A stretch of 64,000 nt of DNA, taken from Arcobacteraceae bacterium (GTDB lineage Bacteria > Campylobacterota > Campylobacteria > Campylobacterales > Arcobacteraceae). Both the position numbers and the translations under genes were made by a program. Shown here piece after piece: positions 44,224 to 49,174 of the stretch; the stretch's first letter is position 1, and every line of letters begins with the position of its first letter. Below the pieces are notes generated by a model. That model was not told the origin of the DNA. It saw only the letters and a list, made by a program, of their open reading frames with translations, and searched no databases. The DNA lies in assembly GCA_048268245.1 (NCBI GenBank), contig JBLWVX010000012.1, positions 1 through 64,000 of the forward strand. Reading direction: 5' to 3'.

Positions 44224-44300
44224 TAACTCTTTATTTTATAAATAATAGCTATTATATCTAATTTATTATAAATTTAGATAAACTTAAATAAAAATAAGAT

Positions 44301-45620
44301 TTATCTCTTAATTAAAGAATCAATAATGGATAATTTATTGTGATTATTCGTTATTCTTAAAAATGAAAGATAATTATTTATTAGGCTAGTAATATTATCT
44401 ATAGATTTTTCTCTTATTTCAAAGATTTTATAATTAGCTTCATTTAAATCAATGATACTTTTTATGCCATATTTATACTCTTTTTTAATAATATCTCTTG
44501 ATATAGTTGCAGTAACTAAAGCTTTTTCATATAATTTGATATATTTTATTGACCATTTTATATTGGTAATTATTTCTTCATATTGAAGGTTTAATTCATT
44601 TTTTAAGTTTTCTAATTCTTTTTGAGAAGATTTAATATTTAGTTTTGAAGCAAGCTCTAGTGCTCTTAATGAACCTCCTTTATATAAAGGGATTGATAGT
44701 CTTAAAAGTATTTCTCTATCTTCATCATATGTTGAACTAAATGTTGAGGTATTTTGAACATTTATATTTTTTGTATATTTCATACTTAAGTTCAATTTTG
44801 GTAAATGATTGTTTTTTGCATCACTTAGCTCATTTTTATAAACTTGTAGTATATTTTTAAGTTTTTTTATTTCTAAATTTGATTGAATTTTAGTAAAGTT
44901 TGAAAGTTCATTTTGTAATTGTTTTATGACAGAAGGATGTAGTTTTAATTTGTCAAGTCTAGGTATTATAAATTTAATATCTTTTCCTATAAAAGTTTGA
45001 AGTTTATTTTTATTTAGTTTAAATAAAAGTTTTTCTTTTTCTAAATCAATAATAGCTTGGTTTAGTTGTGATTCTACATTTAATATTTCTGTCAATGTTG
45101 ATAAGTCCATTTTATATCTTTCATCTAAAAGTGATTTTTTTGATTTTAAAAGTTTTTTATAACTAATAAGCATTCTTAGTTTATTTTTAGACTTAATCAA
45201 AGTTAAATAAACTTCAAGAACATCCCTTATAAGGTCTTGCTTAGCAATTTCAACTTCAGTTTGAAAAGATTTGAATTTAGACCTTTCTATGTCTATTTTT
45301 GAACTAATATTTTTATCAAAAATTGCTTGTTGTAAAACAACATTATAATTTCTTAATTTTTGTGAAATTTTTTTTGTACTTCTATTTTCAAATTTGTAAT
45401 CATTTTTACTATAAGTTGAGTAAAAATTAATGTCTGGATAAAGTTTGGATTGAGCTTGTTTTATATTTTGGTAATTTGATTTGAGCTTTAATTCTAAAGC
45501 TTTAATTTTTTTAGAGCTTTTTAAACTTAAGTTATAGGCTTTTGAGAATGATAAAACCTCTACGCTATAACTATTTATTGAAAAAATAAATAAGAATAGC
45601 ACAGCAATACTATTCCTCAT
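44301..45620 (-). CDS. TolC/PrtF-like outer-membrane secretion channel
   Basis: Signal peptide, two OEP-like repeats (SKLYP...; NHLP...LSIPLYKGG...YKYGIKSIIDL); last gene of the T1SS operon. Confidence 0.88.
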   Translation of the reverse strand: MRNSIAVLFLFIFSINSYSVEVLSFSKAYNLSLKSSKKIKALELKLKSNYQNIKQAQSKLYPDINFYSTYSKNDYKFENRSTKKISQKLRNYNVVLQQAIFDKNISSKIDIERSKFKSFQTEVEIAKQDLIRDVLEVYLTLIKSKNKLRMLISYKKLLKSKKSLLDERYKMDLSTLTEILNVESQLNQAIIDLEKEKLLFKLNKNKLQTFIGKDIKFIIPRLDKLKLHPSVIKQLQNELSNFTKIQSNLEIKKLKNILQVYKNELSDAKNNHLPKLNLSMKYTKNINVQNTSTFSSTYDEDREILLRLSIPLYKGGSLRALELASKLNIKSSQKELENLKNELNLQYEEIITNIKWSIKYIKLYEKALVTATISRDIIKKEYKYGIKSIIDLNEANYKIFEIREKSIDNITSLINNYLSFLRITNNHNKLSIIDSLIKR

Positions 45621-46899
45621 TTAAACTCCTGTTAAACCTATCAAATAGAGGTTTTAATAAGTAGCTTAGAACAGTCCTATGACCTGTTTTTATCATGATT
45701 TCTGCTGGCATTCCTGTAACTAAATTAAAGTTATAATTTTTAATTTGTTCTTGACCCACTTCATCTAATTTTAATTTAATTTCATAAAAATATTCATTTG
45801 CCGCTTCATCATATAATGTATCTGCTGAAACATAGTATACTACAGCATGTACACCATATGATTTTTGAGTATTATAAGCAGAAAAGATAATTTGTGCATT
45901 TAGTCCAGGTTTTACTTTGTCAATGTCAGTAGAGCTTATTTGCCCTTCAACTATTAAGTCTACATTTGTGGGAACAATTTCTAGAATATCTACACCTGCT
46001 TTTATTATTGAATCTTGTATGTAGTTTGAAATACCTACTATATTTCCAGAAGAAGGGGAATAGATTTTTGTTTTATTTAATTTATCTTTTAAAGAGTCTA
46101 TTTTTAATTCAATAGTACTAATTTTGGAGCTTACACTAGTTAGTTCTTCTAATGTTTCTTTTTTAAAATCAGTAGTTATTAAAAGCTTTTTTGTTTTTAA
46201 TTCATTTATTTTTTCATTAAGTTTAATTCTTTCTTTTTTTGTATTAAGTATTTCAGCATTTAATTGAGAATCTTCTCGAATAAATTTTCTTAAGTCAATT
46301 TTATTTATTAGCTTTTTTGCATATAGTTTTTCTAACTCTTTAATTTCCTCATTTATCGACTTTTTAATGAATTGTTTACTTTTTAAAGTATAATTTAAAG
46401 CTTCAATTTGATTTTTTAATTGAGATATTTGTCTACTAATAATATCTTCATTATTTTTAATAGAATTGATAGTACTTAAGAAGAGACTTTTTTGTTCATT
46501 AATTATTTTTTTATCTTGAATTTTTAGATTGAAATTTATAAAGTCTTTCTCATTTTTTTGTGCTAAAAGTCTTGATTTTAAAGCTAATAAATTTTCATAT
46601 TGTGTTAGTTGGCTATCTAATTCGGCTCTTAATTGAGTATCATCTAATTCTATAAGTAATTGACCTTTTTTTACAAAATCACCATCTTTAACATGTATTG
46701 TTTTAATTATTCCACTTTCTAAACTTTGAATTCTTTTTTTATTGAAGTCAGAAGAGACTTTTCCTGCAGCAGTTACATTAATTGCAAGAGGTGCAAATGT
46801 AATCCATCCACCTAAAAGTATAAAAACAATGATAATAACTATAAATCCAGATCTAATTATTTTAGATGCATCAGCGTTAGGTGCTTTATTCATGGGCAT
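45610..46899 (-). CDS. HlyD/PrtE-family T1SS membrane fusion protein
   Basis: N-terminal TM, IQSLESGIIKTIHVKDGDFVKKGQLL, coiled coil, GMPAEIMIKTGHRTVLSYLLKP. Confidence 0.95.
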   Translation of the reverse strand: MPMNKAPNADASKIIRSGFIVIIIVFILLGGWITFAPLAINVTAAGKVSSDFNKKRIQSLESGIIKTIHVKDGDFVKKGQLLIELDDTQLRAELDSQLTQYENLLALKSRLLAQKNEKDFINFNLKIQDKKIINEQKSLFLSTINSIKNNEDIISRQISQLKNQIEALNYTLKSKQFIKKSINEEIKELEKLYAKKLINKIDLRKFIREDSQLNAEILNTKKERIKLNEKINELKTKKLLITTDFKKETLEELTSVSSKISTIELKIDSLKDKLNKTKIYSPSSGNIVGISNYIQDSIIKAGVDILEIVPTNVDLIVEGQISSTDIDKVKPGLNAQIIFSAYNTQKSYGVHAVVYYVSADTLYDEAANEYFYEIKLKLDEVGQEQIKNYNFNLVTGMPAEIMIKTGHRTVLSYLLKPLFDRFNRSLNEE

Positions 46900-48586
46900 T
46901 GTCTACTTCAAAAAATTTATTTTCACTAAGAACTTTATTAGTTTCATCATAATCTTTTATGTAACCATTATCTATTAATAAAATTTTATTTGTAATCTCC
47001 AAAATATTCTCTTTGTGGGTTATTATTATTACTGTAGTTTGATTTTGTTTCAAACTTTTTATAGTATTTAATAGAGCTTTTTCACCCTCTTTATCCAAAT
47101 TTGAATTAGGTTCATCTAAGATAACAAGCATAGGATTATCATAAATCGCTCTTGCCAGACCAATTCTTTGTTTTTGTCCACCAGATAAACTATCTCCTGA
47201 GTTGGTTATTTTCGTTTCATATGCTTTAGAAAACTTTAAAATCATCTCATGTACACCTGCTTTTTTAGCCGCTTCAATTATTTTTTCTGAGTTATGATCT
47301 TTAAATCTAGAAATATTTTCACTAATTGTTCCTTCAAAGAGTTCTATATCTTGTGGTAAATAGCCAATTTTAGGTCCTAGCTCATCATTATTTAATAGAC
47401 TTATATCGATATTATCAATCTTAATTTTCCCTTTTGATAAAGGCCAAATATTAAGTATTGCTTTTACAAGGGTTGATTTTCCAGTACCACTTTTTCCAAT
47501 TAGAGCAACGATATCACCATGGTTTATTTTTAAAGAAATATTTTTAATTGTCTCATTATCTACTAAAGGAGGTTTTATGGCAATATTTTCAAGAAAAATA
47601 TTTGCTTTTGTAATAGGAATTGAAGTTTGTTTCTTTTTTCTTGGAAATTGATTTAATAATTCATCAATTTTCTTTTGACTATTTCTATAGTTTACAAAAC
47701 CCTTCCAACTTGAGATAATTAAATCAAGAGGTGCTAGGGCTCTACCCATAATAATTGAGGCTGCAATCATCATCCCTGCAGTTACTTCATATTGAATAGC
47801 TAAATAAGCTCCAAGCCCTAAAATTAAGGATTGAGATAAAACTCTAAAGCTTTTAGAAATGTTAGTCCATATACTAGATTGAGTACTAGCATCATTTTGC
47901 ATATTTAAAAAGGTATAATATTTTTTATGCCATATTTTTCTAATACTCTCTTTCATACCCATAGAATTGATAACAGAGGCATTTTTTAATGAAGAGTCAA
48001 TATATTTATTAGAGTCAATATTGTTTTTATTTGCTTTATTTAATCTATTCTTCGTTGTTATTTCATTTATAACTGTGATAACAACTAGAATAATAATTGT
48101 AAAAATTGCAAAAAAACCAAATGCAGGATGAAATAAAAATAGAATCCCAACATATATAGTAATCCAAGGAGCATCAAAAAATGCAAAGATACTTCTACCT
48201 GTCATAAACTGCCTAATATGAGTTAGATTATTTAAATATGCAGAATTAGCTTTTTTAGGATCAATTAATTCTAATTCGAATAAAGAGTCAAAAATTCTAT
48301 TGCTCAGTGAATTATCAATATGGTTTCCTATCTTTATTAAAATTTGAGATCTAACTATTTCAAGTAAAGCCATAGTAATAAATAAGACAATAACTATGAA
48401 TGTAAGCATCAATAAAGTGTCTTCACTATTGCTTTTTAATACTCTATCATATAACTGAAGCATATAAATAGGGGGAACAAGCATTAATATATTAATTAGG
48501 AAACTAAATAAACCCACAATTAAAAAGGTTTTTTTACTTTTTTTAAGTGTAGATTTTAATTCCGAAAGATTTTGATTTGATGACAC
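46886..48586 (-). CDS. PrtD-family T1SS permease/ATPase (no C39 peptidase domain)
   Basis: INILML.PPIYMLQLYDRVL, FFDAPW, GKSGTGKS, GYLPQDIELF, LSGGQKQR and LDEPNSNLD. Confidence 0.95.
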   Translation of the reverse strand: MSSNQNLSELKSTLKKSKKTFLIVGLFSFLINILMLVPPIYMLQLYDRVLKSNSEDTLLMLTFIVIVLFITMALLEIVRSQILIKIGNHIDNSLSNRIFDSLFELELIDPKKANSAYLNNLTHIRQFMTGRSIFAFFDAPWITIYVGILFLFHPAFGFFAIFTIIILVVITVINEITTKNRLNKANKNNIDSNKYIDSSLKNASVINSMGMKESIRKIWHKKYYTFLNMQNDASTQSSIWTNISKSFRVLSQSLILGLGAYLAIQYEVTAGMMIAASIIMGRALAPLDLIISSWKGFVNYRNSQKKIDELLNQFPRKKKQTSIPITKANIFLENIAIKPPLVDNETIKNISLKINHGDIVALIGKSGTGKSTLVKAILNIWPLSKGKIKIDNIDISLLNNDELGPKIGYLPQDIELFEGTISENISRFKDHNSEKIIEAAKKAGVHEMILKFSKAYETKITNSGDSLSGGQKQRIGLARAIYDNPMLVILDEPNSNLDKEGEKALLNTIKSLKQNQTTVIIITHKENILEITNKILLIDNGYIKDYDETNKVLSENKFFEVDNAHE

Positions 48587-48610
48587 ATAACACCTTATTC
48601 TAAAATGATG

Positions 48611-48644
48611 AAAGAAAAGTAAGTAGGATTTAACCTACTTACTT
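48611..48644 (-). terminator. Intra-operon terminator/attenuator hairpin
   Basis: Minus strand AAGTAAGTAGG-TTAAAT-CCTACTTACTT-TTCTTT; perfect 11-bp stem. Confidence 0.8.
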
Positions 48645-48653
48645 ATATAATTA

Positions 48654-48890
48654 TTAAGCGATTTCGCAATTTACTTCAGGAGTTTCACCATTTACAGTTA
48701 CATCAATGTTTACGTCAAGAGATGCATCTGAATCTGAATCAAAAGCTCCTGCTAAACTATCAACAAGACCTCCAAGAATACTACCTACTGCACCAATGAT
48801 TCCACCAACTAAATTTACTACTGTTCCAACAATCCCTGCAACTAACTCTACTACTGGAGTTAATAATCCACCTAAAAGTGATCCTAACAT
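48654..48890 (-). CDS. 78-aa Gly/Val/Leu-rich repeat protein, probable T1SS substrate
   Basis: AAGGAA RBS before ATG 48890; four 11-aa repeats and an acidic tail; first gene of the T1SS operon. Confidence 0.8.
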   Translation of the reverse strand: MLGSLLGGLLTPVVELVAGIVGTVVNLVGGIIGAVGSILGGLVDSLAGAFDSDSDASLDVNIDVTVNGETPEVNCEIA

Positions 48891-49006
48891 TCTAAATTCC
48901 TTAAATTTGTTTACAGTAACTAAGTTACTTATCAAATTATTCAATAGTTTAGCTTAAATTATAATTAAAATTATATAAAAATTACTATTAATATTACTTT
49001 ATGTTA

Positions 49007-49172
49007 TGTGAATAGTTATATTGTGCTGTGAAGATTGATGAATAAATGTTGTTCACATAGTGAATAAGTAGTGAATAACTAATGTTTATTAAGTGAATAT
49101 TTAGGTAAAAAATACCATTATACGGTGCTTGAAAGCATGTGAATAAAAATAAGATAAAAAAAGAGTGAATTA
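49007..49172. other. oriC: DnaA-box cluster (putative oriC1) upstream of ruvC
   Basis: TTATTCACA-like 9-mers at 49007-15, 49027-35, 49049-57, 49059-67, 49070-78, 49092-100, 49138-46 (exact, TGTGAATAA) and 49164-72. Confidence 0.75.
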
Positions 49173-49174
49173 GC

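Follow-up and report, generated by a model that had tools for sequence, protein, structure and literature searches.

We examined a 64,000-nucleotide stretch of an Arcobacteraceae bacterium (assembly GCA_048268245.1, contig JBLWVX010000012.1, positions 1-64,000; hereafter the window), which carries a type I secretion system (T1SS) cassette headed by a very small gene. The genome is low in GC, and Halarcobacter and Aliarcobacter are among its named relatives, in line with a place in Arcobacteraceae. The small open reading frame (ORF), prtD, prtE/hlyD and tolC follow one another on the minus strand and are flanked by ruvC and dnaA. The small gene (48654..48890, minus strand) encodes 78 amino acids, with four 11-residue amphipathic Gly/Leu/Val repeats (residues 5-48) and an acidic tail. 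It is followed on the same strand by genes for a PrtD-type ABC permease/ATPase (46886..48586), a PrtE/HlyD membrane-fusion protein (45610..46899) and a TolC-family outer-membrane factor (44301..45620). This is the order given in an earlier note on the same DNA, which had proposed that the exporter is dedicated to the tiny protein.

The 566-aa ATPase was placed by TIGR01842 (693 bits, cut-off 510) and by the tree described below. A Pfam search found no PF03412 (C39) match in it, which agrees with the peptidase-free ATPase of the earlier note. The membrane-fusion protein scored 331 bits on TIGR01843 (cut-off 209). The outer-membrane factor passed the cut-off of Pfam OEP (148 bits), yet reached 143 bits on TIGR01844 against a cut-off of 225. 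The exporter is a T1SS of the PrtD/AprD/HasD class, with a PrtD-subfamily ATPase that has no C39 or C39-like domain (CLD) and an adjoining HlyD-type membrane-fusion protein and TolC-type outer-membrane factor. The cassette holds no integrase or transposase. We found the same cassette in five genomes, and in none does it include a receptor, regulator or modifying enzyme. Besides the cargo gene, no conserved ORF of at least 20 aa, and nothing resembling an immunity gene, lies between ruvC and prtD at these five loci.

That the 78-aa ORF is a genuine gene follows from three features: a ribosome-binding site, signs of purifying selection and a terminator that is conserved. The ribosome-binding site AAGGA (48898..48902, minus strand) is kept at all five loci, and because of its position we place the start at the ATG at 48890 and not at the upstream TTG at 48944. 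The 96-aa version that begins at the TTG was rejected, as the homologs begin at an ATG preceded by the ribosome-binding site; an 83-aa ORF on the opposite strand was also rejected, since the length of the antisense frame is not conserved. Among three close homologs, synonymous and non-synonymous codon changes number 12/4, 12/1 and 7/5. A promoter-like element, TTTAAG ... AATAAT (48936..48958, minus strand), was picked out by eye and has similar counterparts at the four other loci. It may resemble the Campylobacter sigma-70 consensus. An intrinsic terminator or attenuator hairpin with an 11-bp stem (48617..48644, minus strand) separates the cargo gene from prtD; the earlier note does not mention it. 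The terminator scan gave two sites against 0.7 expected in shuffles. A hairpin sits just 3' of the cargo stop codon at all five loci, and changes in the stem, judged by eye, preserve pairing. The prtD start codon is GTG in the window and TTG in two of the other genomes (G104 and G168). A codon-usage proxy ranks the cargo gene at the 90th percentile among 1393 ORFs, a weak measure, built on two reference genes only, to which we gave no weight. We also saw by eye a second hairpin, a short one that closely follows the promoter-like element (about 48914-48929, minus strand); it is present with differing sequence at all five loci (upstream of the gene in L020-L022 and L039) and is possibly a 5' mRNA-stabilizing stem.

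The small protein has a mass of 7.6 kDa, and its four 11-mers (LLGGLLTPVVE / LVAGIVGTVVN / LVGGIIGAVGS / ILGGLVDSLAG) stand in register. The lag with the highest self-identity is 11. Its hydrophobic moment is maximal at 98 degrees (period 3.67, or 11/3), a value that none of 1000 shuffles reached, and on the helix the aliphatic, glycine and polar residues are segregated to different faces. The window protein lacks Lys, Arg and His and has a net charge of -10. Six other Arcobacteraceae homologs bring the total to seven, all 76-79 aa long, and each keeps the uncharged amphipathic Gly/Leu/Val core, the absence of Lys, Arg and His, and a net charge between -7 and -10. Five of the seven show a clear 11-residue period, and the other two, P0003 and P0007, have maxima at 3.5. 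Each homolog contains three to seven GxxxG motifs, and six of seven contain one GAV. An AlphaFold2 monomer model of low confidence (pLDDT 56) placed helices at residues 2-31 and 35-51.

Two of the protein's absences had been pointed out before. There is no GGxGxDxUx nonapeptide and no PF00353 match that would mark an RTX protein, and inspection of the N-terminus shows no basic n-region and no apparent Sec signal. Searches of Pfam and NCBIfam with the seven homologs gave only sub-threshold matches (DUF4307, E 0.004, in one of seven). Microcin profiles did not match the homologs either (best E 0.17, for a single homolog), PDB sequences yielded no match to the small protein, and the ESM Atlas held no usable one. 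A match to a characterized family, which would have argued against a new class of cargo, was thus not seen above threshold in Pfam, NCBIfam or the PDB.

We next looked at how closely the small gene is tied to its exporter, using 184 Arcobacteraceae genomes and a profile hidden Markov model (HMM) built from five homologs. The profile matched in five genomes: that of the window (G000), G085, G104, G106 and G168. In all five the gene lies immediately upstream of prtD-prtE-tolC, between ruvC and dnaA. By genus, these are one of six, three of twenty-five and one of eleven genomes. PrtD above cut-off is found in twenty-three of the 184 genomes. The linked PrtDs are 69-75 per cent identical to that of the window, and in a sample of 401 genomes from the order no other PrtD exceeds 59 per cent. 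In a tree of 52 rows, made from the PrtD hits of the family and order searches that were longer than 450 aa, the five linked ATPases form a single clade (100/100) with no member that lacks the small gene. The profile search proposed in the earlier note, with its question of whether homologs sit upstream of prtDEF, has turned up linkage in five of five genomes and one exporter clade. Good sequence-level support for a tiny, dedicated cargo that belongs to no described family comes from this linkage, from the single origin of the exporters in the tree, from the anatomy of the operon and from the missing family match.

Other searches added little to this set. A single-sequence word search left none of 30 candidates with a score, and a pattern scan of genome contigs confirmed one of 18, which was a locus already in our set. 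HMMER against 50 per cent representatives gave five matches: P0003, which is a true homolog, and four repeat proteins of greater length that we judged compositional. No fused longer form (140-2000 aa) appeared among 8000 scored candidates, which is weak evidence; the idea that the small gene is the remnant of a large protein gains no support from these searches.

In the tree, the clade of linked ATPases falls within a set of exporters most of which are preceded by a SapC-like gene; PF07277 was confirmed on all three of those tested. SapC-linked exporters ship S-layer proteins. In most SapC-linked loci across Campylobacterales (L005 and L011 and L013 among them) the SapC protein encoded upstream of prtD carries an IS200-like (Y1_Tnp) domain at its N-terminus and is about 430-470 aa long. 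The small gene thus sits where SapC does in the sister exporters, and this raises the possibility that its product is not cargo at all but, for example, a membrane-associated accessory that replaced SapC, the exporter serving a larger protein encoded elsewhere. Its hydropathy (GRAVY 0.8-1.4, with 19-residue maxima of 1.7-2.1 across the homologs) is compatible with membrane association, although the core is amphipathic rather than uniformly hydrophobic. The terminator behind the small gene also suits an abundant cargo, as the position of the tail motif described below suits a C-terminal signal. The window's own genome offers larger candidates, namely an RTX ORF at the end of contig C17 and large adhesins, but the adhesins have LssB/LapB-type exporters of their own (720-730 aa, on contigs C52 and C56). 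The earlier note had not recorded these additional T1SS cargos, most of which come with their own exporters. It had allowed that the exporter might serve a large RTX protein encoded elsewhere. In keeping with a small cargo, three cassette genomes, G085, G104 (a single contig) and G106, show no PF00353 match; of the remaining two, G000 has one contig-end ORF and G168 two large proteins. Weighing these points, we regard a non-cargo role as improbable. At the C17 locus itself (G000:C17:48241-52532), a 270-aa partial HlyD-like ORF accompanies the contig-truncated RTX ORF. No ABC partner was seen in the vicinity, and this is possibly a decayed T1SS locus.

The tail is where an uncleaved export signal would be expected in a cargo of this class. 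The window protein ends in EVNCEIA, and the earlier note had read the terminal acidic residue plus hydrophobic residues as the signal. This did not survive comparison: EIA is not conserved, and such ends occur in only three of seven homologs (EIA, ELA, ELA), the others ending in GTCC, GVCC or GGLA. All seven keep an alternating acidic/aliphatic strand that ends in [VI]-[TD]-[VI]-N-G at positions -13 to -18 (VTVNG at -15 in the window). As the terminal residues vary, we take this motif to be the conserved tail element. VTLIG is described as a motif common to T1SS substrates (PMC3430570), and [VI]x[VI]NG may loosely resemble it. Three homologs (L020-L022) end in CxxCC, as some of the double-glycine-leader peptides discussed below also end in Cys, and the other four homologs do not; disulphide cross-linking or metal binding are possible roles for these cysteines.

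Compared with known systems, the cassette resembles PrtDEF, AprDEF, HasDEF and LipBCD in its three-gene exporter, its ATPase above the TIGR01842 cut-off, its upstream cargo gene and terminator, and its cargo, which is acidic, has no leader and may bear a loosely VTLIG-like motif close to the C-terminal end. It differs in that the cargo is only 7.6 kDa and has neither RTX repeats nor an enzyme domain. To our knowledge, HasA (about 19 kDa) is the smallest cargo of the C39-less PrtD class, and we know of no natural cargo below 10 kDa for C39-less exporters; a literature search for one also found none. SapCDEF of Campylobacter fetus, another member of Campylobacterales, is close in its ATPase, the clade here being nested among SapC-linked homologs at 55-60 per cent identity. 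However, PF07277 is missing from the window's own genome (99 per cent complete) as well as from the cassette, no gene of S-layer size is present (ruvC and dnaA flank all five loci), and the locus is a different one. Class II microcins are likewise below 10 kDa and hydrophobic or Gly-rich (76-79 aa here), but the present proteins have no double-glycine leader (none of seven), no C39 peptidase, no adjoining immunity gene (five loci) and an acidic C-terminal extension. Acinetobacter MccAB1 is described as a T1SS-exported microcin that forms biofilm amyloid through GAV motifs (PMC13188072); it shares the small size, the Gly/hydrophobic-rich composition and GAV, whereas its immunity and cupin genes have no counterpart here. 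Caulobacter CdzC and CdzD are described as small glycine-zipper T1SS proteins that aggregate at the cell surface (PMC5380434). They are two processed peptides with the immunity protein CdzI, in contrast to a single leaderless gene with no immunity gene. Judged by its sequence, the small protein falls outside RTX proteins, class II microcins and Cdz. The exporter belongs to a class already known, and it is the cargo family that appears to be undescribed; a literature search found no description of the cassette or of either peptide family treated here, supplements being outside its scope (those of microcin-mining studies might list the double-glycine-leader peptides).

It is very probable that the small protein is exported by the T1SS of its own cassette. 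What it would do outside is a further step. Our preferred proposal is that the exporter arose from the S-layer-type, SapC-linked ones found in Campylobacterales and is now devoted to the 78-aa protein. The small gene would be strongly transcribed and most transcripts would end at the hairpin, so that cargo far exceeds exporter; we infer this excess because of the promoter, ribosome-binding site, terminator and non-ATG start of prtD. The exporter would recognize the unfolded, very acidic protein by its C-terminal tail, which is not cleaved, and pass it through both membranes. Outside, the core of about 45 residues would form an amphipathic 11/3 helix on which a stripe of glycines accompanies an aliphatic face and a narrow polar face without charges. 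This helix would adsorb to hydrophobic surfaces such as the outer membrane, the air-water boundary, oil or particles, and self-associate into a film or fibre, while the acidic tail faces water. The protein would then be a surfactant or a component of the biofilm or surface matrix and not a toxin. Of the roles named in the earlier note (surfactant, amyloid or coat, and membrane-active peptide), the evidence leans towards a non-toxic interface or matrix role, and we put export combined with an abundant, non-toxic, interface-coating or self-assembling cargo at about an even chance.

Several observations weigh against this proposal. The five cassettes are related and represent one origin, not five independent associations, and genomic context covers five of the seven homologs, the other two (P0003 and P0007) having come from protein searches. 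The likeness to VTLIG is loose, with N at its fourth position, and the extreme C-terminus is variable. The truncated RTX ORF on C17 and the two RTX proteins of G168 are further possible cargos of the cassette exporter. Finally, both precedents, MccAB1 and CdzCD, are described as toxins too and have immunity genes (PMC13188072, PMC5380434). As these join aggregation with killing, and as the family has a patchy distribution and three to seven GxxxG motifs per protein, a leaderless microcin-like antibacterial must be considered. It would be exported in the same way and its glycine-zipper helices would then permeabilize competitors, the producer being protected by the acidic tail or by a distant immunity gene. 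The immunity gene of MccAB1 is said to have been an overlooked small ORF (PMC13188072). The five cassettes have no conserved immunity ORF of at least 20 aa, and the protein has neither basic residues for anionic membranes nor a leader to remove. Together with the look-alike peptides considered below, this makes an antibacterial role rather unlikely.

RaxX, reportedly a small T1SS cargo with an effector role, brings up another alternative, that the protein is exported and acts as a diffusible signal or as an effector directed at a host or other eukaryote. A small T1SS effector, TesG, is described in PMC12646011, and the double-glycine-leader relatives adjoin PAS sensor kinases. On the other hand, TesG and RaxX are likened by role only, the high-expression anatomy and repetitive, low-complexity core suit a bulk material, and none of the five cassettes offers a receptor, regulator or modifying enzyme. 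We think a signal or effector distinctly improbable.

The profile search also returned eight weaker matches (E 1e-5 to 0.08), two of them named as Azonexus and Rhodocyclaceae. These begin with a double-glycine leader and lack an acidic tail. The full set of look-alikes (P0008-P0018 and L048-L066) comes from these taxa and from metagenome contigs. A metagenome scan gave nineteen look-alike loci, among which seven short contigs were uninformative or partial and two pairs were near-duplicates. A peptidase-containing ABC transporter (PCAT) is present in twelve of the nineteen, including all eleven loci longer than 8 kb. The C39 domain was confirmed by Pfam in two of these PCATs, and the Cys/His active-site motifs are present in all six examined. 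The peptides often occur in two to four tandem copies with HlyD, PCAT and TolC, and several loci lie beside Tad pilus, PAS kinase or LapA-like genes (e.g. L048:7490-13269, L049:285-13425 and L058); by count, cpaB/rcpA Tad genes occur in four of nineteen and a LapA-like retention module in three. A tblastn search of plasmids with one such relative, low-complexity filter on, found none. The closest annotated plasmid PCAT that we examined, from Burkholderia, carries a different small peptide outside this family.

The mature look-alike cores consist of four 11-mers in the same register as the Arcobacter protein, starting near the mature N-terminus. Aligned with hhalign, the look-alike and Arcobacter profiles match with a probability of 98.5 per cent over 47 columns, in the core only. 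With the Arcobacter HMM, twenty-nine of thirty unique cores scored higher than their own reversal and twenty-four of thirty beat all 50 pattern-keeping shuffles, though reversals and shuffles retain about 70-75 per cent of the score and the cores were themselves chosen by such searches. Because these cores are linked to C39-PCATs, they give an independent sign that cores of this kind are T1SS cargo. The earlier note missed this association, which ties the small protein to microcin-like peptides: the closest look-alikes come with PCATs whose active sites are intact, and in the ESM Atlas the nearest clusters to one look-alike are auto-named bacteriocins (all scores below 0.9). Even so, six double-glycine-leader loci that we scanned have no evident immunity gene, and these relatives often lie in adhesion islands, both of which fit poorly with an antibacterial.

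We tentatively consider a signal swap, with a somewhat low likelihood. One non-toxic, microcin-like family of amphipathic surface peptides with four 11-mers would travel with a double-glycine leader and a PCAT in Betaproteobacteria and with an acidic C-terminal signal and PrtD in Arcobacteraceae, the latter having lost the leader, gained an acidic signal of about 30 residues, re-purposed an S-layer-type PrtD and settled in a non-mobile cassette that splits the replication origin oriC1. Similar Gly/Leu amphipathic stretches also end proteins of 550-940 aa, which counts against a unique ancestry of the two peptide families; since such helices recur in unrelated surface proteins, homology and convergence are both viable. 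One genome (G426, L117:36-8508) has a 562-aa Leu/Gly/Thr/Asp-rich, low-basic protein together with repeat proteins of 942 and 675 aa with Gly/Leu amphipathic C-termini, the genes for the latter two each being followed by an OmpA-like gene (labelled by eye). In another (G510, L116:158-604), a leaderless 148-aa acidic Leu/Val/Gly amphipathic protein free of Lys and Arg is encoded beside two large repeat adhesin-like genes about 11 kb from ruvC, and no PrtD over cut-off was found in that genome.

The usual division is described as one in which active C39 PCATs carry leader-bearing cargos no larger than about 10 kDa, the leader being N-terminal, and C-terminal signals serve larger proteins (PMC8277102). 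If our preferred proposal is true, a natural 7.6-kDa cargo on a C39-less exporter breaks this division. It would also be a nearly minimal substrate for PrtD-type recognition, its 30-residue tail a minimal portable export tag, and the two families, with a shared core and opposite signals, a natural swap comparison. The proteins would further make up a candidate class of small peptides that serve the surface or biofilm without being toxic, and annotation would wrongly list many of them as bacteriocins.

The cassette's position was also not recorded earlier. The replication origin oriC1 has been placed between ruvC and dnaA (PMC5043019), and the cassette interval (44224-49174) parts it. The ruvC-side part (48990..49174) holds DnaA-box-like motifs at 49138-49146, 49070-49078, 49059-49067 and 49007-49014; the dnaA-side remnant (44224..44300, minus strand) holds a promoter-like TATAAT and the dnaA leader, and its final 50 bp or so match relatives with an empty site. 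In ten empty-site genomes, five of the same genus (RuvC 95-98 per cent identical) and five others, the interval is about 190-280 bp; for four of these ten the locus stopped at a contig end, which we treated as the dnaA side. The window retains the first 135 bp or so, with the DnaA-box-like motifs, and the last 50 bp or so, and about 60 bp are replaced by the 4.7-kb cassette; most of the motifs are now 4.7 kb from dnaA. If tolerated, this insertion would be a natural test of the spacing need in the bipartite Campylobacterota origin. The cassette occupies the identical site in the four other genomes, which belong to two other genera. This distribution fits either an ancient cassette that was lost in many lineages or its spread by recombination in the flanks, which are conserved, and marker identities were mixed and did not discriminate between the two. 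In G168 (L040:14112-16427), GyrB is 82 per cent identical to that of the window, against 89 per cent for a more distant genus (g10), which is opposite to the pattern of RuvC, DnaA and DnaN and suggests recombination near the origin.

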